Notes under the pieces: generated by a model
Seen by the model: the letters and a program-made list of their open reading frames with translations, nothing else
Databases searched by the model: none
What the model was told of the DNA's origin: nothing
Position numbers and translations under genes: made by a program
Origin: Candidatus Eiseniibacteriota bacterium
Lineage (GTDB): Bacteria > Eisenbacteria > RBG-16-71-46
Direction: 5' to 3'
NCBI GenBank assembly: GCA_035691845.1
Contig: DASSIN010000061.1
Coordinates: forward strand, 2,950-66,949
Length of the DNA: 64,000 bases
Shown: positions 4,467 to 40,136 of the stretch, piece after piece
How the letters are laid out: every line of letters starts with the position of its first letter
How positions within the stretch are numbered: position 1 is the stretch's first letter

Positions 4467-5072
4467 CGGCTTCGACCCATCGGCCAGGGATCAACGCGCA
4501 TCGCCATTCCACCGATCCGTCGCAGCCGTCCCCTGCGGGGCGCGGACGGCACCGTCACGTGGGTCTGATGAATGGATCCCTCCCAACGGACCAAGCTATT
4601 TGGGCTCAATGGCTTGAACGATTCTCCCGTCCTTGGACAACAGTGGTGGAAACGCGCGTATTCTCATACGTGTCGCACGTGCTCCACCGGCGCCACGCCG
4701 GGGGCGTTCCCGGGCCATGCCACGCGCGGGAGCGGGCGACGCGCAACTCCAGAAACGAGTGCGACCGGACGATGACAGAGAGGGGAGGGTGCGAGGCGCA
4801 ACGGAGCGGTTGCTCCGCTGTCGGTGTAGTTCCATTCCGGCCGGCAGGCGCCGGATGGACGTTCGCAGGCGCCGCGCGCATTTCCAGAATCTGCAAGCCT
4901 GGAGGGGTGAGCTGTCATCAAATGAAGCACTCACCCGTAACCCGCGCGCGGACACACGGATGACCTCGCGGCACCCTCATTGCCAATGACCGAACCGACT
5001 CGCGGACGCGGCGACCTCGCCACGTTCCCTCCCATCGCTGCGCTGCGCACTGGCTTCGTGCGGCTCCAGCCC

Positions 5073-8000
5073 ATGATGGCCGGCACCCGCTTCCACATGA
5101 AGCAGGCGGTCGAGCTGTCGCGTCGCACGCCCACCTGGGCGTGGGCCGTGATCACGCTGCTGCTGCTGTGCGCCGAGGGATGGCACGAGTACGAGACCTC
5201 CGCGATCCAGTCGCGGCTGCTGTCGCAACTGGCGGCGCGCGTGTCGTACACGGTCGAGCCCGGCCCGAGCCCGACGATCGTGCTGCCGCAGCAGGGCCCG
5301 CTCGACGAGCGCCGCGGCTACGCGCGCATCGACGAGTTCGCCCGCCGGCTGGCGAAGCAGGGGTTCCGGCTCACCGAGCAGGCGCGGTTCTCCCCCATGC
5401 TGGCCCAGCTCGCGAAGTGGAAGGTGCCGCCTCCCTACCGCGAGAAGGCGGCGGCCGGGCTCGTCATTCGCGGGCGCGGCGGCGACACGTTGTTCGACGC
5501 CGTGCCGCACGACGGGCTCTACCAGCGCTACGACAACATTCCGCCGCTGGTGGTGAACACGCTGCTCTACATCGAGAACCGGAAGCTCGGCGGCGACGAC
5601 AGCCCGTCGGCCAACCCGGCCGTGGACTGGGGCCGGTCGGCGAAGGCGGGGCTGCTGTACGCCGGCAGCCGCATCGGGCTCCCGACGCGGATCGAGGGCG
5701 GCAGCACGCTCGCCGTGCAGCTCGAGAAGTACCGCCATTCCGGCGCGGGTCAGACGCACTCCGGCGTCGACAAGCTGCGGCAGATCTTCGCCGCCTCGCT
5801 GCGCGCCTATCGCGACGGCCCCGACACGCGCGTCGAGCGGCGCCGGATCGTGCTCGACTACCTGAACACCATGCCGCTCGCCGCCTCGGCCGGCCACGGC
5901 GAGGTCGAGGGCCTGCGCGACGGACTGCGCGTGTGGTTCGGTCTCGATCCCGACCAGGTGGGCCGCGACCTGCGACAGACCGACGACACGCCCGCCAAGG
6001 CGCGCGCCTACAAGCACACGCTGGCGCTGCTGTACGCGGTGCGCGCGCCCAGCGACCTGCTGGTGCACGATCGCGCGTCGCTCGAGGCGCGCATCGACAA
6101 CTACACGCGGCTGCTCGAGGCGGCGGGGCTCGTGAGCCACGACCTGGCGCAGGCCGTGCGCGAGACACCGCTCCGATTCGCGGACGCGGCGCAGGTGGCG
6201 AGCACCGATCCCGACAAGCCCACCTCGCGCGAGTACAAGGCCGAGAACGCGCTGCGCCGCGAGCTGGCGAACCTGCTCGACGTGCCCAGCTACTACGACC
6301 TGAACCGCCTCGATCTGCGCGCCGAGACCAGCATCGACGTGGCGCTGCAGGACTCGGTCGAGCAGACGTTCGCGCGGCTCGCCTCGCCCGAGTTCGTGGC
6401 CGCGCACGGCCTGATGGGCGAGCACCTGCTGCCGAGCGGCGATCCCTCCAAGGTGATCTACAGCATGCTGCTGTACGACGTCACGCCCGACGGCGACGTC
6501 GAGCGCGTGCACACCGACAACCTGCACGGCCCGTTCGACGTGAACGAGGACATGAAGATGGAGCTCGGCTCGACGGCCAAGCTCCGCACCCTCGCCCACT
6601 ACCTCGAGATCGTGAGCCAGCTCCACCAGGAGCTGTCGCCGCTCAAGCCCGACAGCCTGCGGGTGGTCGCGCGCGACGGCAGGGACGAGCTGACGCGCTG
6701 GGCGGCGGGCACGCTGCTCGATCGTCCGGGAGCGCCGCTCGATTCGCTGCTGGAGTGGTCGCTGGACCGCACCTATTCGGCCAGCCCCTACGAGCAGTTC
6801 TTCACCGGCGGCGGCGTGCACTCGTTCGAGAACTTCGATGCCGACGACAACCACCGCATCGTGACGGTGCGCGAGGCGGTGGCGCGCTCGGTCAATCTCG
6901 CGTTCATCCGGCTGATGCGCGACGTCGTGCGCTGGCACGAGGCGCGGCTCCCCTACGACGCCGACGCCGTGCTGGACAACCCCGACCATCCGCTGCGCCA
7001 CAAGATGCTGCTCGAGGCGGCCGACGAGGAATCGCGGCAGATCCTGGCCAAGTCGTGGAAGAGCTACCGCGGCCTCGCGCCCGCCCAGGTGGTGAACGCG
7101 CTGCTCGGCAGCCGCGCGACCGCGATCCGCTCGCGCGCGGTGCTGTACTTCGCATGGCACCCCGGCGCGAGCGCCGCGGACCTGCAGCGCGACCTGGGCC
7201 CCGGCTTCCACGGCGTGCCGCCCGACGTGTGGCCCAAGCTGGCGGCGAAATACGCCAGGCCCGAATTCACGCTGCTCGACTACGCCTACCTGCTCGGCCG
7301 CCATCCGCTCGACGTGTGGTGCGCGGGCGCCATGGCGCGCGACTCGAGCCTGAAGTGGAGCGCGCTCGTGCAGCAGAGCGCCCCGGCGCGCGCGCTGGCC
7401 TCGCAGTGGCTGCTCGAGCCCAAGCACGTCGGCGCCCAGAACCTGCGACTGCGGATCATGATCGAGCGCGACGCGTTCGAGGCGATGACGCCCGCGTGGC
7501 GTCGGCTCGGGTTCCCGTTCGCGCACCTGGTGCCCTCCTACGCCACCGCGATCGGCAGCTCGGGCGACCGCCCCGCGGCGCTGGCCGAGCTGATGGGCAT
7601 CATCGTGCACGGCGGCACGCGCCAGCAGGCGCCGCGCCTGCGCCAGGTGGCGTTCGCGCCCGGCACGCCGTACGAGACGGCGTTCGAGGCCAGTCCCGTG
7701 ACCGAGGAGCGGCTGATGTCGCCGCAGATCGCGGCCGCGATGCGCCGCGTGCTGCTGGGCCCCGTGGACCACGGCACCGCCGTGCGGCTGAAGGACGTGT
7801 TCCTGGCGCCCGATTCCACCGCGCTCGCCGTGGGCGGCAAGACCGGCTCGGGCGACAACCGCTTCGAAACGTTCGCCAAGGGCGGGCGGTTGATCTCGTC
7901 CAAGGCGGTGAGTCGCACGGCCGCGTTCGTGTTCTACCTGGGGCCCAAGCACTACGGCGTGATCACCGCCGGCGTGTTCGGGCCCGAGGCCGAGCACTAC

Positions 8001-16336: not shown

Positions 16337-17553
16337 GCGCAGAGCGTGGGGTTTACCCGCGACAGAAGAAGGACGGCTCGCTGGTGTGGTGGATCGTCTA
16401 TCACCACCGCGGCCAGCGGTTCCGTGAGAGTAGCCACAGCGCGAACCCGGAGGTTGCTCGGCGGCTGCGCCAGAAGCGTCTGACAGCGCTGGAGCGCGGC
16501 ATCAACGGGCGCGACGCGGACCGGATGCGGTTCGATGCCCTCTCGGCGCTGCTCATCGCGGATTACAAGGTCCGTCAGCGGAAGTCCCTCGATCGCGCCA
16601 AGCTATCCCTCTCCCACCTACGCCGGCACTTCGGCAACTGCCGCGTGAGCGCCATCACCCCGAGCGCCATCAAAGCCTACGTGTCCGAGCGGCTGGAGAC
16701 GGCGAAGCCCGCGAGCGTCCAGCTCGAATGCGCCGCCCTGAAGCGGGCCTTCAATCTCGCCGTGAAGGATGGGCTCCTCGCCACCCGCCCCGCATTCCCG
16801 ACGATCGCGGTTCACAACGTGCGAACCGGATTCCTGGAGCAGGCGCAGCTTCAGGCGGTGCTCGACAACCTCGGTCCCGAGGTTCAGCCGGTGGTGCGAT
16901 TCGCGTCGCTGACCGGCTGGCGCAAGAGTGAGGTGCTCGGTCTCCAGTGGCGGCAGGTCGATTTCGGCGCCGGTGTCGTCCGGCTGGATGTCGGAGCGAC
17001 CAAGAACGGCGAGGGCCGGGTTTTTCCGTTCGCTGCGCTGCCGGAGTTGGATGAGCTTCTGAATGCGCAGCGTGAGCGCACGTCAGCCGTTGAGCGCCAC
17101 CGTGGGCAGGTTATCCCCCACGTGTTCCACCGGCGGGATGGTGGCCCCATCCTGTCGCTCGATCACGCGTGGGCGAGCGCCTGCCGGCGCGCTGGCGTAC
17201 CCGGGCGGCTATTCCACGACCTGCGCCGCACGGCCGTGCGTTCGTTCGAGCGCGCCGGGGTGCCACGCGCCGTGGCTATGCGGCTCTCCGGGCACAAGAC
17301 CGAGGCCATCTACCGGCGCTATGCGATCGTGTCGGAGTCGGACTTGGCGGAAGGTGTCCAGCGGCTCGCCCAGGCGCGTACCGCCACGCAGACCGCCACA
17401 CGGACGGTTCGTGCCGCAGCGGGCGGTTTGGACGAATCCCACAACTCATTGCAGGACAACATGCCGGGAGCAGGAGTCGAACCTGCACGGGGTTTCCCCC
17501 GACGGATTTTAAGTCCGTCGCGTCTGCCATTCCGCCATCCCGGCATCGACTGA
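16333..17553 (+). CDS. Tyrosine site-specific integrase (phage integrase family)
   Basis: N-terminal SAM-like domain; catalytic region R...HDLRRT...HKTEAIYRRY (R, HxxR, Y). The 3' end overlaps the tRNA-Leu/att sequence. Confidence 0.85.
   Translation: MSAERGVYPRQKKDGSLVWWIVYHHRGQRFRESSHSANPEVARRLRQKRLTALERGINGRDADRMRFDALSALLIADYKVRQRKSLDRAKLSLSHLRRHFGNCRVSAITPSAIKAYVSERLETAKPASVQLECAALKRAFNLAVKDGLLATRPAFPTIAVHNVRTGFLEQAQLQAVLDNLGPEVQPVVRFASLTGWRKSEVLGLQWRQVDFGAGVVRLDVGATKNGEGRVFPFAALPELDELLNAQRERTSAVERHRGQVIPHVFHRRDGGPILSLDHAWASACRRAGVPGRLFHDLRRTAVRSFERAGVPRAVAMRLSGHKTEAIYRRYAIVSESDLAEGVQRLAQARTATQTATRTVRAAAGGLDESHNSLQDNMPGAGVEPARGFPRRILSPSRLPFRHPGID
17455..17514. repeat. 60-bp direct repeat (att-right) lying within the intact tRNA-Leu 3' half
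   Basis: Identical to 9656-9715. Confidence 0.85.
17462..17544 (-). tRNA. tRNA-Leu (anticodon UAA), type II with long variable arm
   Basis: The reverse complement reads GCCGGGATGGCGGAATGGCAGACGCGACGGACTTAAAATCCGTCGGGGGAAACCCCGTGCAGGTTCGACTCCTGCTCCCGGCA. There is a 7-bp acceptor stem, an anticodon loop CTTAAAA and a T-arm GGTTCGACTCC. CCA is not encoded. Confidence 0.85.
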
Positions 17554-33563: not shown

Positions 33564-34612
33564 CCGCGCTCGTCCCGATCGTCGTCGGCCTGGGGCCGGT
33601 GATCGTGTTCCTCGCCGCGCTGGTGGCGATGGACAGCTATCGCCTGGTGCGGCGCCGCGACGTGGCCATGAGCCTGGCGTGGGGCGCGCTCGCCGCGCTG
33701 CTGGCGTGGTTCGCCAACGGCGCGCTGCTCGCGCGCGGGATGCCGCGGGCGGAGGTGACCGGCACGTTCGCGCCGCTGTTCGAGGAGGCGCTCAAGGCCG
33801 CGTGGGTGGTGGTGCTGCTCGCCACCGACCGCGTCGGGTTCCTGGTGGACGCCGGCATCCACGGATTCGCGATCGGCACCGGGTTCGCACTGGTCGAGAA
33901 CGCGAGCTACGCGCACGCGATCGGCTCGGGCCCGGTGCTGCTGTGGGTGGCGCGCGGGCTCGGCACCGCGGTGATGCACGGCGCCACCACCGCCGTGGTG
34001 GCGATCGCCGCCAAGGCGCTGGCCGAGCGCCACCACCGCCCCGCGTGGCTCGCGACGCTGGCCGGCTGGGCGCCGGCCGTGGTGGTGCACGCGCTGTTCA
34101 ACCGCTACACCGGCTCGCCGCTGGTCTCGACCACGGTGCTGCTCGTCACCATGCCGCTGCTGCTGCTGGGCGTGTTCGAGTGGAGCGAGCGCGCCACGCG
34201 CCGCTGGGTGGGCGCCGGGCTCGATCAGGACGCCGACGCGCTGGAGCAGATGCTGGGCGACACCGCCCACGACACGCCCGCCGGCCGCTACCTGGCCGAG
34301 ATCTCGCACCGGTTCCCGCCCGCCGCGGTGGCGGACATGTTCTGCCTGCTGCGCATCCACCTCGAGCTGTCGGTGCGCGCCAAGGCGCTGCTGATGGCGC
34401 GCGCCGCCGGCGTCGAGATCCCGCTCGACGACGACGAGCTGCGCGCCCAGTTCACCGAGCTCAAGTTCCTCGAACGCTCGATCGGCCGCGCCGGCCTGCT
34501 GGCCCTGGCCCCCCTGCGTCGCAAGAGCAGCCGCGACCTGTGGCAGCTATTGGTCCTGCAACGCGGCTCGCTGTCCGCCAGCTTGCCGCCCGCGCTGCGG
34601 CGGGATCAATAG
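33560..34612 (+). CDS. PrsW/CPBP-family intramembrane metalloprotease
   Basis: Polytopic. Motifs: FEEALKA (EExxK/R), GTGFALVENASYA (FxxxE), HGATTA and HALFNR (HxxxN). A GTG start overlaps the upstream stop. Confidence 0.55.
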   Translation: MTALVPIVVGLGPVIVFLAALVAMDSYRLVRRRDVAMSLAWGALAALLAWFANGALLARGMPRAEVTGTFAPLFEEALKAAWVVVLLATDRVGFLVDAGIHGFAIGTGFALVENASYAHAIGSGPVLLWVARGLGTAVMHGATTAVVAIAAKALAERHHRPAWLATLAGWAPAVVVHALFNRYTGSPLVSTTVLLVTMPLLLLGVFEWSERATRRWVGAGLDQDADALEQMLGDTAHDTPAGRYLAEISHRFPPAAVADMFCLLRIHLELSVRAKALLMARAAGVEIPLDDDELRAQFTELKFLERSIGRAGLLALAPLRRKSSRDLWQLLVLQRGSLSASLPPALRRDQ

Positions 34613-34657
34613 CACAGCGCGTAGGGAAGCCCCGGGGGATTCACGTCCCGGGCTCCC

Positions 34658-35344
34658 TCACCGCCGATAGAGCGCCTTGATCTGGCCCCAAGACTTCGGC
34701 AGTGAGGGAACGGTGTTCGTCTGCCAAGTCACGACATTCTGCCTGTTCGAGAACCTGATCGTCGTGACGCTGCCATCCGACAAGAGGAACACCATCTGTC
34801 GAAGCGTGATCGTCGCGTAATCACTGCATCCCCCGCATGCTCCAATCCCAAATGCGTTCGTATTCATGATCCGGAGCCGCGCACCAAGATATTCGACTCC
34901 GGAAGTCGGCTGAAGACCCCCGGAGAAATATCCCACGACACTGAGCTCCGCCTGATTGGGGAATCCAAGGGTCGAGTGGAAGAACTGCTGCGTGCTATCA
35001 GGTGTGACGCCCAAGTTCGCACATCCAGGTCCATCCGAGGGCAGGTATCCAGGGGCAACCGCTCCCGCCCTGCACAGGCCGCTGCCGACCATCCACCAGT
35101 CGGGCAGCAGGGAGTCGTTCGGAGTTTGAATGATAAGGTCGACGTTGTAGGCCACGATCGGTGCTTGAAAGGAGAACCCGGCGAAAGACGCCACAAGGTC
35201 TTCGCTCCCGACGTTCGTCGAACAGGCGAACGTCTTGCTCGTGACTCCGCCAACTCCGCAATCGTCCCACGCCAGATCGATGGCCTGCGCGCAGGCGGGC
35301 CCCGCCAGTAGCATGGTGACTGCAACTAGAAACCATCGGCCCAT
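34658..35344 (-). CDS. Secreted Cys-containing hypothetical protein
   Basis: Signal peptide MGRWFLVAVTMLLAGPACAQA. 228 aa with several Cys pairs. Lower local GC. Confidence 0.4.
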   Translation of the reverse strand: MGRWFLVAVTMLLAGPACAQAIDLAWDDCGVGGVTSKTFACSTNVGSEDLVASFAGFSFQAPIVAYNVDLIIQTPNDSLLPDWWMVGSGLCRAGAVAPGYLPSDGPGCANLGVTPDSTQQFFHSTLGFPNQAELSVVGYFSGGLQPTSGVEYLGARLRIMNTNAFGIGACGGCSDYATITLRQMVFLLSDGSVTTIRFSNRQNVVTWQTNTVPSLPKSWGQIKALYRR

Positions 35345-35358
35345 CCCGCTCCTCCTGC

Positions 35359-37106
35359 TCACCACAGGCTCTGCCACGCGGAGCCATCGTAGATCTGCGC
35401 CTTGCCCGTGGACGTATTGAAGATCGTGTCCCCCGCTGCCCAATTGGAGAACGCCGAGACGTCGGAAGCTGAAAGCCTCGGAAGCCTGATTCGCCACATG
35501 CTGCCGAGGAGAACGCTCTTACTCGACTGATCGCCCACGTCCAGCTCTTGCGAGGCGCCAAGTCCACCCACGACTCCCCCGCCCGACACGGTCGCTTCGC
35601 ACGAGCTTCCGATAACCACGTGGTGCCCGGAACTTGGCTTGGCGCTCTCGAAGATGGTGAGGTTCGCCACCTCAATGCTCTTCCCAGTCCCGGCGAACTC
35701 GACGTAGGTCGTCTGGCTTGAGCCCGCGCTCGAAAACAGGCATGACCTGACCGCAATCCCGATGTAGTTGCCCGAGTTCGACGTCGCCTTGATCACGGTT
35801 CCGGGTATGTCCTCGAACCAGCACCCTACGATCACGACTTGGTTCGTTTCGGTCAGGTGGATGGCTCCGCCATTGCCGGGGGTTCCCGCAAGCCCGGCTT
35901 GAAAGACACACCGCTCGAAGGCGAGGCCGTTGGCGGTTGTCGCGAGGACAGCGGAGTCGTTGAATCCCTGGAAGAAGCAGTCCTTGAAGTACTGGGTCGT
36001 TGAAGCCTCGGTCTTCGTGGCTGGTGACGGCGAGTCGATGGCCACGCAGCCCTTGCCAGGACTGTCGACATCGACTCTTTCGTAAACGCCCCATACCGAG
36101 AAATTGTTCTCGGGATTCGAGCTGTTGTTCCGCGTTCCATCAACGTGGACGCCATATCCCGCGCAGAAGGAGATCTTCACGTCCCTGACGTGAACGCCGA
36201 ATATGTCCGTGTCCACGCCCGATCCGACCTTGTCGCTCTTGATGCGTATTCCGGCGCCTTCGCCGCTGAGTTTGTTGAATTCGACCGGGCCAACAATGGA
36301 GAGGCGTTCGATCGTCTGGTTGATGCCCTGGATGACGATCAGGTCTGTGTCGACATCCATGTTGTTGGCGTAGTCAAGTATCGTTTGATCAACGCCATCG
36401 CCAAGAATAGTCACTGGCCTGTCGTCGGGCAGCAGCAACGGGGGCGTAAACGAGGGAGCAGTGGTGAGCCCGTAAACGCCGGCCGGTATATAGACTACCC
36501 CCCCCCGGTGGGAAGGGCGTCTATCGTGGCCTGAATGGTGGGGTAGTCGCGGGCGTTGACCCAGGCCACGCCGCCGCGCATCCAGCCGCCCTCGACATCC
36601 TCGTACAGGAGGTACGAGATGTAATCCGCGCCGAAGATGGTGACGATGATGTCGTAGCGCGTCTCGGCAACGTAGAATCCGATGTATCCCTCGCCATCGG
36701 CGATCGGCGCCGACGTCGCGGCCCACGTGCCGGTGGCCTCGTTGTACACAGTCGGGAACGAATCGGTCCGGACAAGACGTGAGCCACGCTCCAGCGGGAT
36801 GGCGTCCGTCCCCGTGTTGTGGATCGTGACCGTGGGTCCGGAGGCCAGGTTCATCGCCGTGATCGTCATCGTGTTGGTGGAGCTATCCGTGCCGTTCTGC
36901 ACGGTACTTCCGACCGCGAGTCGCCCGGTGTCGTAGACGTCCACGGCGACCGCTGCCCCGCCGGAGATCGTGACTGCCGTGCGAACGGTCGCGCCGAGAT
37001 AGTGAGGAACCACTGGCGCGCCCCCGACCGGGACGAGGGTCGAGTCTGAGGTGGATGCCTCGGCGAGGACCCTGGTTTCGTAGTGTCGCAATGTCAGCTT
37101 CGGCAT
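35359..37106 (-). pseudogene. Pectate-lyase-fold (Pectate_lyase_3 / tailspike-like right-handed beta-helix) gene interrupted by a -1 frameshift at a G9 homopolymer
   Basis: The upstream ORF (36495..37106) ends ...YPTIQATIDALPTGGG then stop. The downstream ORF (to 35359) continues VVYIPAGVYGLTT...TILGDG with beta-helix repeats. Ten G instead of nine would fuse them into IDALPTGGGVVYIPAGVY, the canonical N-terminus of this fold. Confidence 0.6.
36497..36505. repeat. Homopolymeric C9 (G9 on the coding strand) tract at the frameshift site
   Basis: Nine consecutive C read directly from the sequence, flanked by TA and GG. Confidence 0.9.
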
Positions 37107-37276
37107 GACAGCCCTTTGGCCGGCGCCGCGCCGGGGTCGGGCGCGGTGGTCATTCGGTCAAGAGCATACCGCTTCACGGGCCCCGGGCTTCAGTCGTTTC
37201 TTCCGTCTGGACCCGAGACTCGCCGGAAGCTGCAGCTACGCGGTTGCCAAGGCGTTATGGCGAGCCCGAGGCCCGA

Positions 37277-38728
37277 TCAATAGCGCGGGACGGCGGGGTC
37301 GATTTCGCGGGACCAGGCGTCGATGCCGCCTTGCAGGTTCTTGAGCTTGCGGAAGCCGGATTGCTTCAGGAACTCCAGCGCGCGCTGGCTCCTCTGGCCG
37401 TGGTGGCAGTAGAGCACGATCTCGCGGCTGGAATCGAGCTCGGAGACGCGCTCGGGCAGGGAGTTGAGCGGCATCAGCGTGGCGCCCTCGATGCGCGCGA
37501 TCTGCCACTCGTGCGGCTCCCGCACGTCCACCAGCATCGGCGGGTCGCCCGCGCGCTGCTGGTCGGCCAGCCCGCGCACGGAGATGTCGTCGGCGCCGGC
37601 GTGCGCATCGGCGGGCACGATGCCGCAGAACTGCTGGTAGTCGATCAGCGCCGTCACGCTCGGATGCTCGCCGCACACCGGGCACTCGGGGTCCTTGCGC
37701 AGCTTGAGCTCGCGGAACCGCATCGCCAGCGCGTCGAACAGCAGCAGCCGGCCGATCAGGGGCTCGCCCGCGCCGAGCAGCAGCTTCAGCGTCTCGATCG
37801 CCTGCACCACGCCGATCACGCCCGGCAGCACGCCGAGCACGCCGCCCTCGGCGCAGGACGGCACGAGCCCGGGCGGCGGCGGATCGGGGTACAGGCAGCG
37901 GTAGCAGGGCCCGCGCTTGGCGTCGAACACGCTGGCCTGGCCCTCGAACCGGAAGATGCTGCCGTACACGTTGGGTTTGCCGAGCAGCACGCACGCGTCG
38001 TTCACGAGGTAGCGCGTCGGGAAGTTGTCGGTGCCATCCACGATCACGTCGTAGCGCGCGAGGATGTCGAGCGCGTTCTCGCTCGAAAGCCGCACGGCGT
38101 GGCGCTCGACCTGCACATTGGGATTGATGTCGCGGATGCGGTCGGCGGCGGAATCGAGCTTGGGACGGCCGACGTCCGCGGTGCCGTGCAGGATCTGGCG
38201 CTGCAGGTTGCTCTCGTCCACCACGTCGAAGTCCACGATGCCCATGCGGCCGACGCCGGCGGCGGCGAGGTACAGCGCGAGCGGCGAGCCGAGCCCGCCG
38301 GCGCCCACGCACAGCACGCTCGAGGCCTTGAGCTTCCGCTGCCCGGCGAGCCCGACCTCGGGCAGGATCAGGTGCCGGCCGTAACGCAGCAGCTCCTCCT
38401 GCGACATCGGCGGCAGGCCGTCCTCGCCCGTCGCCCACGCCGGCGCGCGGCGGCCGCCGGCGATGCTGGGCACGATCGCGACGTGGTCTTCGGCCGAGAC
38501 CGGCGTCGCCTCGCGCGCGAGGTGGCGGATGTCCTCGTCGTTCACGTACACGTTGACGAACCGCCGCAGCCTGCCGTCGGCGTCGTACAGGTGCGCTCGC
38601 AGCGCCGGGTGCGCGGCCACCAGCTTCGCCAGCGCCTCGCCCGCCGTCGCCGCCTCGACCTCGATCGTGGCGAGCCCGCCGGCATAGGCGCGCAGCGGCG
38701 TCGGAATGTGAATGCGGATCGTGCTCAC
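37277..38728 (-). CDS. Fusion protein: ThiS/MoaD/CysO-like sulfur carrier (ending Gly-Gly), then MoeB/ThiF-type E1 adenylyltransferase, then C-terminal rhodanese (MoeZ-like)
   Basis: GTG start with GAGGAG 8 nt upstream. A beta-grasp domain ends ...IVPSIAGG, a 16-aa linker follows, then MSQEELLRYGRHLILPEVGLAGQRKL...VGAGGLGSP (E1 Rossmann), CxxC pairs (CYRC, CPVC) and the rhodanese active site LYCHHGQRS. Confidence 0.75.
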   Translation of the reverse strand: MSTIRIHIPTPLRAYAGGLATIEVEAATAGEALAKLVAAHPALRAHLYDADGRLRRFVNVYVNDEDIRHLAREATPVSAEDHVAIVPSIAGGRRAPAWATGEDGLPPMSQEELLRYGRHLILPEVGLAGQRKLKASSVLCVGAGGLGSPLALYLAAAGVGRMGIVDFDVVDESNLQRQILHGTADVGRPKLDSAADRIRDINPNVQVERHAVRLSSENALDILARYDVIVDGTDNFPTRYLVNDACVLLGKPNVYGSIFRFEGQASVFDAKRGPCYRCLYPDPPPPGLVPSCAEGGVLGVLPGVIGVVQAIETLKLLLGAGEPLIGRLLLFDALAMRFRELKLRKDPECPVCGEHPSVTALIDYQQFCGIVPADAHAGADDISVRGLADQQRAGDPPMLVDVREPHEWQIARIEGATLMPLNSLPERVSELDSSREIVLYCHHGQRSQRALEFLKQSGFRKLKNLQGGIDAWSREIDPAVPRY

Positions 38729-38733
38729 GAACG

Positions 38734-39198
38734 CTACTCCTCTGCGGCGGGATCGGCGGCGGCGCGCGCCGCGTGCGGCGCCACGATCGCCACCTCGACC
38801 TCGTCGAACGCGGCGCGGTCGTCGCGCAGCCGCCAGGCGGTGGTGGCCTCCGCACGCCCGCGCACGACGCCCACGATCACGTAGTCATACCACGGCCAGG
38901 CGTGCTCGAGATCGAACGCCGAGGGGCGCGCCGGGTGGTCGGGGTGCGAGTGGAAGAACGCCACCACGTCCAGCGCTTGCGCGCGCGCGCGGCGTTCGGC
39001 TTCCAGCACCTGCCCGGGCGCGATCAGGTAGCGGTTCGCGCGCGAATCCTCACGCGTGTTCTCGAACGCCATCACCTCGGCCACCTGGCGCGCGCCGTCG
39101 CCGCGTCCCAGCAGCACGCCGCAGCCCTCATCGGGATACGCGCGCTCGAGCGCGGCGTGGATCTGCGCGAGCTGATCGCGCGACAGCTCGAGCCTCAT
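38734..39198 (-). CDS. mec: JAMM/MPN+ metalloprotease (Mec+-like CysO-cysteine peptidase)
   Basis: JAMM motif E...HSHPDHPARPSAFD (HxHx7Sx2D). 154 aa. ATGA overlap with the cysM stop. Confidence 0.7.
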   Translation of the reverse strand: MRLELSRDQLAQIHAALERAYPDEGCGVLLGRGDGARQVAEVMAFENTREDSRANRYLIAPGQVLEAERRARAQALDVVAFFHSHPDHPARPSAFDLEHAWPWYDYVIVGVVRGRAEATTAWRLRDDRAAFDEVEVAIVAPHAARAAADPAAEE

Positions 39199-40136
39199 GC
39201 CGCGCCCTCGGCGTCCCACAGCGGATCGCTCAGGTAGCGCTCGGCGCCGTCCGGCAGCACGCACACCACCACGCCCGACTCGAGTCCGCGCGCCACGCGC
39301 GCGGCGGCCGCCACCGCCGCGCCGGCCGACCAGCCGAGCAGCAGCCCCGCGCGCGCCTGCGCCTTCACCGTGGCGATCGCCTCCTCGCTCGCGATCGCGA
39401 GCGTGCGGCGATGGACGGAAGGATCGTAGATCGGCGGCACGAGCGCGCTCGGCAGATGCTTCAAGCCTTCGAGCGCGTGCAGCGGGCCGTCCGGCTGCAC
39501 GGCGATCACCTCGATCGCGGGATCGAATTCGCGCAGCCGCCGCGCGCATCCCACCAGCGTGCCCGAGGTGCCGATGCCGGCGACCAGGTGCGTGATGCGG
39601 CCCTCGGTCTGCTCCCAGATCTCGACCGCGGTGCCGTGATAGTGCGCGAGCCAGTTGGCGGGGTTGGCGTACTGGTCGGCGTGGAAGTAGCGCTGCGGGT
39701 GGCGGCGCGCCAGCCCGCGCGCCGCGCGGATCGCGCCGTCGGTGCCCTCCATCGGGTCGGTCGGCACGATCTCGGCGCCCAACGCCGCGATCAACCGGCG
39801 GCGCTCGACGTTGGCGTTCCCCGGCAGGCACAGCGTGACCCCGATGCCGCGCCGGGCGCCGATCCAGGCGTAGGCGATCCCGGTGTTGCCGGAGGTGGCA
39901 TCCAGCAGTCGCCGGCCGCCGGCGAGCGAGCCGTCGCGCTCGGCTGCCTGGATGATGGCCCACGCCGCGCGGTCCTTGACCGAGCCACCCGGGTTCGCGC
40001 TCTCCAGCTTCCCGAGCACGGCCACCCCGTCGGGCAGATCGAGGCCCGCGATCGGCACGAGCGGCGTGTGCCCGATGCGGGCGGTCAGGTCGGGAATGGC
40101 CAGATCCGTGGCCTCGGGGGCGTGGTGCCGGTGCAT
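39195..40136 (-). CDS. cysM: Cysteine synthase CysM-like (PLP-dependent, thiocarboxylate-utilising type)
   Basis: PLP-binding region SVKDRAAWAII, glycine-rich loop DATSGNTGIAYAWIGA. 313 aa. Confidence 0.8.
   Translation of the reverse strand: MHRHHAPEATDLAIPDLTARIGHTPLVPIAGLDLPDGVAVLGKLESANPGGSVKDRAAWAIIQAAERDGSLAGGRRLLDATSGNTGIAYAWIGARRGIGVTLCLPGNANVERRRLIAALGAEIVPTDPMEGTDGAIRAARGLARRHPQRYFHADQYANPANWLAHYHGTAVEIWEQTEGRITHLVAGIGTSGTLVGCARRLREFDPAIEVIAVQPDGPLHALEGLKHLPSALVPPIYDPSVHRRTLAIASEEAIATVKAQARAGLLLGWSAGAAVAAAARVARGLESGVVVCVLPDGAERYLSDPLWDAEGAA

Follow-up and report, generated by a model that had tools for sequence, protein, structure and literature searches.

How can a sulfur carrier protein that needs a free C-terminal carboxylate be charged when its coding sequence runs, without a stop codon, into that of its own activating enzyme? 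The question is raised by a locus in a 64,000-nucleotide stretch of DNA from a Candidatus Eiseniibacteriota bacterium (GenBank assembly GCA_035691845.1, contig DASSIN010000061.1, positions 2,950 to 66,949 of the forward strand), the whole of which is here called the window and supplies the coordinates below. On the minus strand of window positions 37277 to 40136, the sequence and the list of open reading frames (ORFs) give three tightly packed genes, which encode a CysM-like cysteine synthase dependent on pyridoxal 5'-phosphate (PLP), a JAMM metalloprotease of the Mec+ type, and a single protein in which a CysO-like carrier domain is followed by an E1 adenylation domain and a rhodanese domain. 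A first-pass annotation of this DNA, made from the sequence alone, had described the same three genes, and the ORF list and Pfam matches bear it out. We argue that the fusion protein is probably a polyprotein, from which the co-encoded JAMM protease would free the carrier after Gly92, and that its parts would then enter the CysO/MoeZ/CysM/Mec+ cycle of cysteine synthesis, a reading that draws on sequence conservation and on characterized relatives.

Architecture of the fusion gene

The fusion ORF (37277 to 38728, minus strand like the rest of the operon) starts with a GTG at 38728 and encodes 483 residues. They comprise a CysO-like beta-grasp sulfur carrier domain of the ThiS/MoaD type that ends in IAGG (residues 1 to 92, 38453 to 38728), a linker that is hypervariable between lineages (residues 93 to 105, RRAPAWATGEDGL, 38414 to 38452), an E1 adenylation domain of the MoeB/ThiF/MoeZ type (residues 106 to 370, 37619 to 38413), and a rhodanese domain (residues 386 to 483, 37280 to 37573). 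Pfam placed ThiS at residues 6 to 92 (the full model, 1 to 76 of 76, E = 7.7e-12), ThiF at 116 to 351 (E = 8e-84), and Rhodanese at 392 to 474 (E = 5e-19). There is no stop codon between VPSIAGG (residues 86 to 92) and the E1 domain; one hidden between IAGG and the linker, which the first-pass annotation had named as a danger to its reading, was looked for and is absent. As first translated, the chain continues from Gly92 through a peptide bond into Arg93, so that there is no free C-terminal carboxylate before proteolysis.

The ORF is preceded by a GAGGAG Shine-Dalgarno sequence (38737 to 38742, read directly from the sequence), which lies within the 3'-terminal codons of the JAMM gene, 8 nucleotides 5' of the GTG; the gap between the TAG stop of the JAMM gene and the GTG is 5 nucleotides. 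NCBI lists the same protein, at 100% identity, from a Candidatus Eisenbacteria metagenome-assembled genome (MAG); this entry, P0001, begins three codons 3' of the GTG (480 versus 483 residues; window 38717 to 38728). The better Shine-Dalgarno context belongs to the GTG start.

Distribution of fused and split forms

As homologues we took the best 120 matches from a search of 5.8 billion proteins from NCBI, ENA, JGI, and Logan sources. They are 65 to 100% identical to the fusion protein (65 to 81% when P0001 is set aside), all 120 carry the IAGG junction, and 119 have the ThiS, ThiF, and Rhodanese architecture in precomputed annotation, the lone exception being an N-terminally truncated sequence. 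We also compiled a genome set of the best 80 loci, one genome per species, ranked by full-length tblastn match. The carrier and the E1 share one frame without a stop in 59 of these 80 loci, which span at least 10 phyla and include Eisenbacteria, Acidobacteriota (five classes), Gemmatimonadota, Ignavibacteria, Chloroflexia, Armatimonadota, and Omnitrophica, among others. Because ranking on the full-length match favors fusions, a second sample was drawn through the JAMM gene alone and is thus unbiased for fusion; in the 53 loci whose downstream sequence was long enough to judge, fused genes (38) outnumber split ones (15). Within the clade of the window (JAMM at least 55% identical), all evaluable loci are fused except two that are apparently frameshifted. 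Judging by these sequences, the fusion is the majority form in several phyla. The orthologues are thus not uniformly split; uniform splitting, with this locus set apart by a single-base indel, is what the first-pass annotation had seen as fatal to its reading. The layout is also less unusual than that annotation had implied, and the general idea that JAB frees fused ThiS/MoaD dates from 2006.

A MAG as the source invites the suspicion that the fusion is an assembly or sequencing artifact, produced by a missed stop or an indel, and two of the related loci (L107 and L110) do look frameshifted. However, the open junction is common to independent NCBI, ENA, JGI, and Logan assemblies, and fusions also lie on complete long-read chromosomes (for example, L001, of 4.16 Mb, and L080). 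Such an error is ruled out by this agreement, and we give the artifact virtually no credence.

In a neighbor-joining tree of 116 E1 domains, the fused or split state switches at least 11 times, and some split loci match a fusion in all but an in-frame stop that has a Met directly behind it (for example, GGNGDR-stop-MAL in L064 and GGMY-stop-MANVEL in L014). These two junctions, which put the fused and split states one mutation apart, would suit the view that most or some of the E1-rhodanese is made from an internal start near Met108 and that the fusion arises as a minor side product, through loss of a stop. Other evidence runs against it. The nearest GAGGA lies 13 nucleotides upstream of Met108, compared with 8 for the GAGGAG of the fusion start, in line with the first-pass annotation, which had called the former site poor and the latter good. 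Moreover, the Met108 column of the 120 homologues holds 90 Leu, 22 Met, 7 Ile, and 1 Val, so that 98 fused homologues have another residue there; Met108 is not conserved, and a conserved internal start is therefore excluded. Even with internal initiation, the sole CysO copy would still be trapped in the fusion and would still need release. We consider this explanation highly improbable.

We had also entertained the idea that the split loci of the genome set, in all of which the carrier lies in the E1 frame, were a sign of read-through or of recent nonsense mutation. It was dropped: split loci of the JAMM-anchored sample fall in frames 0, 1, and 2 in 7, 2, and 6 cases, respectively, and the same-frame pattern arises from the selection bias of the full-length tblastn ranking.

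Three MAGs labeled as archaeal (L010, Methanobacteriota; L045, Thermoplasmata; L074, Methanomassiliicoccales) carry the same operon of cysM, JAMM, and fusion genes, and their fusion proteins share 60 to 62% identity with the bacterial protein of the window. Either misbinning or horizontal transfer would account for these cases.

Identity of the carrier domain

The best solved match of the carrier domain is Mycobacterium tuberculosis CysO (3DWG_C, residues 3 to 93, E = 6e-14). The alignment runs end to end and places IAGG (residues 89 to 92), the last residues of the ThiS domain, on the terminal Gly-Gly of the mycobacterial protein. A monomer model of the fusion was built with AlphaFold2 (AF2) on 31 sequences, with a mean predicted local distance difference test (pLDDT) score of 83.8; the beta-grasp fold (residues 1 to 87), the E1 domain, and the rhodanese domain are all confident. 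In split loci, a stand-alone CysO that is 44 to 65% identical to the carrier domain occupies the place between the JAMM and E1 genes. In sequence and place, then, the N-terminal domain corresponds to the stand-alone CysO, as its positional orthologue. Neither the fused loci nor the 64-kb window yielded a second ThiS-like gene, and no second E1 or JAMM copy was found within the window.

The Gly-Gly junction and the linker

Gly91 and Gly92 (codons 38453 to 38458) are invariant in the 120 homologues, while Ala90 and Ile89 are kept in 119 and 118 of them, respectively. Conservation drops directly after the Gly-Gly: the first linker residue varies, and the linker, rich in Pro, Ala, and Gly, ranges from 6 to 57 residues with a median of 25 (and is as short as 4 residues in L076 of the genome set). 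In the AF2 model, pLDDT falls below 50 at residues 88 to 93, a predicted flexible tail, and is intermediate in the linker. An invariant Gly-Gly before a freely drifting spacer is what one would expect a processing site to look like, and the conservation and the low pLDDT together mark Gly92-Arg93 as the predicted scissile bond.

The first-pass annotation had the order of ThiS domain, linker, and E1 right, but its 16-residue linker was too long. The segment LPPMSQEELLRY is already part of the conserved N terminus of MoeZ-type E1s, which leaves a linker proper of about 12 residues (about 93 to 104), or 12 to 15 as a range. An Eisenbacteria-like clade retains the linker motif PAWATG(A/E)DGLPP before the N-terminal helix of the E1 (residues 95 to 105, 38414 to 38446), and AF2 predicts a short helix at residues 97 to 100 of the linker. 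The motif might be a docking site for the JAMM protease or a latch.

If the carrier were never released, the beta-grasp domain would act in cis, or as a docking or regulatory ubiquitin-like (Ubl) domain, and the actual sulfur carrier would be a free CysO from another locus. Iyer et al. (2006) noted solo ThiS genes alongside Ubl-ThiF fusions, from which they concluded that the fused domain probably has a different role (PMC1779556). The Ubl-E1 fusions in that study, however, are only of the Campylobacter ThiF type, with Ubl domains "distinct from ThiS" and an assigned noncarrier role (PMC1779556), whereas the domain in the window is CysO-like and best matches M. tuberculosis CysO. No solo ThiS-like gene was found beside fused loci, the domain is the positional orthologue of the solo CysO of split operons, and a noncarrier domain would have no reason to keep an invariant Gly-Gly before a hypervariable linker. 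Above all, by the established chemistry of ThiS, MoaD, and CysO, neither adenylation nor thiocarboxylation can proceed without a free C-terminal carboxylate (PMC3227635), and an internal Gly-Gly cannot be activated. A permanently attached, cis-acting carrier, which the first-pass annotation had kept as its alternative, is thus chemically implausible and gains no support here; we regard it as very unlikely.

Enzymes encoded with the carrier

The E1 domain has the motifs RYGRH (from Arg115), GAGGLG (from Gly142), and DGTDNF (from Asp231), the zinc cysteines Cys275, Cys278, Cys349, and Cys352, and the loop cysteine Cys292. All of these residues, including the arginine finger (Arg115 and Arg118), the nucleotide-binding Gly-rich loop (Gly142 to Gly147), the Mg-binding Asp (Asp231 and Asp234), and the zinc cysteines, are invariant in the alignment. 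The NCBIfam model MoeB PRK08762 (NF006444) scores 493.9, above its cutoff of 449, and the MoeZ equivalog NF005902 scores 513.7, below its cutoff of 647, so the family is fixed and the subfamily name is left unfixed. In the rhodanese domain the active-site loop reads CHHGQRS from Cys441, and Cys441, Gly444, Arg446, and Ser447 are invariant in the alignment.

The JAMM/MPN+ metalloprotease of the Mec+/desampylase type (154 residues, 38734 to 39198; Pfam Prok-JAB, E = 7.9e-24) has a complete catalytic motif within its Prok-JAB domain: Glu24, His83-Ser-His85, Ser93, and Asp96. Among 149 neighboring JAMM proteins, conservation of this motif, E...HSHP...S..D, reaches at least 95%. The NCBIfam desampylase model matches with E = 1e-21, below its cutoff, and the best PDB match is 2KCQ (E = 1e-29). 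The CysM-like PLP-dependent cysteine synthase (313 residues, 39195 to 40136; Pfam PALP, E = 4.6e-64) has its Schiff-base PLP lysine, Lys54, in SVKDR, aligned with SIKDR of the M. tuberculosis enzyme. Arg220 of the mycobacterial CysM, which in the 2008 work of Agren reportedly underlies a preference for O-phosphoserine, aligns with Lys226, so that a basic residue is kept. The TGA stop of the cysM-like gene overlaps the ATG of the JAMM gene in an ATGA (39195 to 39198, read directly from the sequence), suggesting translational coupling of the two genes. All catalytic residues required by the steps proposed below are present and invariant.

Linkage to the JAMM gene and predicted release of the carrier

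About 75 loci of the genome set of 80 repeat the order of cysM, JAMM, and fusion genes, so that the carrier adjoins a CysM-like and a JAMM gene in these relatives as in the window. Two loci are cut by contig ends; in the remaining 78, a JAMM gene is co-encoded in 76. These include L076, which first seemed to lack JAMM and has it two genes downstream of the fusion. JAMM and CysM are both absent within 6 kb only in L054, which is fused, and in L035, which is split.

This linkage bears on whether the cut after Gly-Gly could instead be made by a housekeeping protease or by autoproteolysis, with the JAMM protease releasing only cysteine from the CysO-cysteine adduct (CysO-Cys). In its favor, the MoaX fusion of M. 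tuberculosis is cut at its Gly-Gly, in Mycobacterium smegmatis, by "an as yet unidentified protease" (PMC4326299), and L054 has no neighboring JAMM gene. Against it stand the co-encoding of JAMM in 76 of the 78 informative loci and the nature of the bond, since Gly-Gly-X is of the same type as the targets of Mec+ (CysO-Cys) and of HvJAMM1 (SAMP1-MoaE). In addition, the diversity of the cargo that follows Gly-Gly in relatives, described below, fits a protease that reads the Ubl domain and Gly-Gly rather than the leaving group. Cleavage by another protease therefore seems to us quite improbable. The comparative tests of release by JAMM, the reading that the first-pass annotation had preferred, all fit it, namely, the conserved fusion, the conserved Gly-Gly, the linkage to JAMM, and the orthology with CysO; the cleavage itself we infer from them.

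Several points nevertheless weigh against this reading. L054 is fused and yet lacks JAMM and CysM within 6 kb, which means that a neighboring JAMM is not strictly obligatory and which would also suit a tethered carrier. In that locus the fusion is divergently paired with a class V aminotransferase resembling cysteine desulfurase (the pair occupies 4580 to 5887 on the minus strand and 5992 to 7452 on the plus strand), and it may represent a different use of the fusion. The lack of an assigned protease for MoaX in mycobacteria leaves JAMM unproven as a general maturase. The search for a second CysO covered the 64-kb window and the fused loci, which is less than the source genome. Finally, the CysM-like protein shares just 35% identity with M. 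tuberculosis CysM (3DWG_A), and its score against the TIGR01138 cysM model, 306.5 bits, is below the cutoff of 394.2, so that its acceptor substrate (O-phosphoserine or O-acetylserine) is uncertain.

Proposed pathway

We hypothesize that the operon carries out protein thiocarboxylate-dependent cysteine synthesis, and we infer each biochemical step, the cleavage included, from homologues and precedents. First, the 483-residue chain would be translated from the GTG at 38728. The JAMM protease would then cut the Gly92-Arg93 bond to give a 92-residue CysO ending in Gly-Gly-COOH and a 391-residue E1-rhodanese. Gly92 would next be adenylated by the E1, and the persulfide of rhodanese Cys441 would turn the adenylate into the thiocarboxylate CysO-COSH. 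CysM would add the thiocarboxylate to the PLP-aminoacrylate formed from O-phosphoserine or O-acetylserine, and an S-to-N shift would yield CysO-Cys. The same JAMM protease would finally hydrolyze the Gly-Cys amide, so that cysteine leaves and CysO is regenerated. The steps from adenylation onward are those of the published M. tuberculosis pathway (PMC3227635), in which Mec+ hydrolyzes CysO-Cys. The cleavage is predicted from three precedents: MoaX, a MoaD-MoaE fusion in which cleavage after Gly82, its Gly-Gly, is needed for activity (PMC4326299); HvJAMM1, which cuts a linear SAMP1-MoaE fusion exactly after Gly-Gly in vitro and in vivo (PMC4443979); and the prediction of Iyer et al. (2006) that JAB proteases free ThiS/MoaD domains fused to other proteins (PMC1779556).

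The fusion might, in addition, serve as a proenzyme switch, with the tethered CysO and the E1 both inactive until the JAMM cut, although we think this unlikely. The attachment point of CysO would be the N-terminal helix of the E1, the bearer of the conserved RYxRH arginine finger, and the PAWATGxDGLPP linker motif would be a recognition or latch element. As the final step likewise depends on JAMM, this protease would license the whole pathway, and no ATP would be used nor sulfur loaded in a cell unable to release cysteine.

Sequences following Gly-Gly in related carriers

The window fusion has 391 residues beyond Gly-Gly, and a free C-terminal Gly-Gly is uncommon among its relatives. In the 21 split genome loci, CysO continues for 1 to about 27 residues beyond Gly-Gly, and none has a stop directly after it. 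In the JAMM-anchored sample, three split loci end in Gly-Gly and a stop, and the others have short tails, TusA, or DUF4395. We also searched the 92-residue domain against 1.84 billion proteins, representatives at 50% identity; some are truncated by contig ends, so that the counts are rough. Among the 129 representatives bearing the motif, 8 have a stop directly after Gly-Gly, 58 have tails of 1 to 30 residues (many of them Cys-rich), 21 run into E1, and 1 runs into a second ThiS domain. Such representatives are only partly informative about fused versus free counts, since fused proteins, sharing a conserved E1, end up in a small number of clusters and many representatives are cut short at contig ends.

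The fusion probably persists because JAMM cuts after Gly-Gly anyway, which would render whatever follows harmless. The sequence beyond Gly-Gly would then be almost free of selection, and, consequently, loss and gain of the stop codon would be tolerated and repeated, and partners would accumulate there.

Other partners were seen at this position. In L108 (2134 to 2664, plus strand) and L116 (1054 to about 1600, plus strand), CysO is fused after Gly-Gly to a TusA sulfurtransferase domain (Pfam TusA, E = 1.4e-20, with a CPxP motif), another polyprotein of a carrier and a partner in the same operon family. In L109 and L114, CysO runs in frame into a DUF4395 membrane protein. Three split loci (L133, 2458 to 3449; L136, 1076 to 2169; L153, 4180 to 5204) have extra genes between cysO and the E1 gene, which encode a DUF4395 membrane protein (E = 8e-28, with a CxGC motif) and a membrane-anchored thioredoxin-like protein (CxxC). 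These proteins may supply sulfur or reductant; the window operon has neither gene. P0121, of 190 residues, consists of two tandem CysO-like ThiS domains joined after Gly-Gly, a di-Ubl precursor that recalls polyubiquitin.

Short Cys-rich tails directly after Gly-Gly occur in many stand-alone relatives of CysO, as in CCCCCCL, ACACYCPCRMNA, CCPPAACCCR, and CCPCGCCCCPR; the carriers are P0122, P0137, P0141, P0211, P0144, and P0163, together with the L056 junction. We may speculate that a Cys as the first tail residue mimics the CysO-Cys adduct normally cut by JAMM and, equally speculatively, that a terminal run of Cys codons in a cysteine synthesis gene senses the supply of Cys-tRNA.

Relation to known systems

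Carrier precursors cut at Gly-Gly or matured by JAMM are an established principle, and both the pathway and the operon type are known. The CysO, CysM, Mec+, and MoeZR proteins of M. tuberculosis (Burns 2005; O'Leary 2008; Voss 2011, PMC3227635) provide the same four modules as the window, that is, a Gly-Gly carrier, a PLP-dependent cysteine synthase, a JAMM protease, and an E1-rhodanese. In M. tuberculosis, however, CysO is a free protein ending at Gly-Gly and moeZ lies outside the operon, whereas in the window CysO is fused and all modules are encoded by three contiguous genes; the mycobacterial CysM also has Arg220 where the window protein has Lys. Iyer, Burroughs, and Aravind (2006) listed, as operon type 4c, an identical set of genes (ThiS/MoaD, E1-rhodanese, JAB, and cysteine synthase; Table 1 of PMC1779556) in overlapping lineages, namely, Solibacter, Rubrobacter, Salinibacter, and Chloroflexus, and 2KCQ, the best structural match of the window JAMM, is of the Salinibacter type. 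Unlike that of the window, the carrier of operon 4c is not described in the text or table as fused to the E1 (PMC1779556). In the literature we found no description of a fusion of CysO with MoeZ or E1 in such an operon, though the treatment of the E1 superfamily by Burroughs et al. (2009) may mention one.

MoaX and SAMP1-MoaE likewise have a carrier Ubl fused through Gly-Gly to a partner enzyme and are inactive until cut after it. Their partner, MoaE, is the downstream acceptor, whereas that of the window carrier is the upstream activating E1; moreover, the SAMP1-MoaE fusion of Haloferax was engineered, whereas the window fusion is natural. Shorter extensions are also on record. In the QbsE/QbsD system of quinolobactin synthesis, studied by Godert and coworkers in 2007, and in the HcyS/HcyD system of Wolinella methionine synthesis, studied by Krishnamoorthy and Begley in 2011, a co-encoded JAMM reportedly removes the residues after Gly-Gly before charging by an E1 or E1-rhodanese. 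The extension of QbsE and HcyS is 1 or 2 residues, whereas in the window it is a whole enzyme of 391 residues. Eukaryotic polyubiquitin and the ubiquitin-ribosomal protein fusions are Gly-Gly-ending Ubl proteins freed by deubiquitinases, a class to which JAMM proteases belong. Those precursors serve protein tagging and never have an E1 as the fusion partner, whereas the window protein would serve sulfur transfer and has the E1 as its partner.

If the predicted cleavage takes place, the fusion would be a polyprotein, natural to bacteria, whose ubiquitin-like carrier is made already joined to its own E1 and is freed by JAMM, a close prokaryotic parallel to the eukaryotic ubiquitin fusion precursor genes processed by deubiquitinases. 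The Mec+-type JAMM would gain a second role, precursor maturation, beside cysteine release, and the varied C-terminal cargo of carriers encoded next to JAMM (E1, TusA, DUF4395, and Cys-rich tails) would be accounted for. The fusion is widespread and common in soil bacteria, and those who study Ubl sulfur carriers would not find it surprising. Hundreds of database entries labeled just "MoeB" conceal the sulfur carrier of the pathway; as a result, genome-based metabolic reconstructions of Acidobacteriota, Gemmatimonadota, Eisenbacteria, and other lineages may wrongly score the CysO pathway as incomplete. The architecture as such is not hidden, since the automated names at JGI already list all three domains for many of the fusion proteins.

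Genomic context of the operon

Upstream of the operon and divergently transcribed lie genes for glucokinase and transketolase, which look like housekeeping genes. No sigma-70 promoter or intrinsic terminator was found around the operon, a negative that is uninformative for this phylum, and an Rfam scan of the window showed neither a riboswitch nor any further RNA element near the three genes. The sole Rfam match in the window is a tRNA gene (17462 to 17544, minus strand, 60.7 bits). Just downstream of the operon, the GC content is about 0.65 (34000 to 38000), compared with 0.72 in the flanks. This low-GC block, which may be a foreign insert, contains two ORFs without Pfam matches (36495 to 37106 and 34658 to 35497, minus strand) and encodes a 455-residue right-handed beta-helix protein (35359 to 36726, minus strand).

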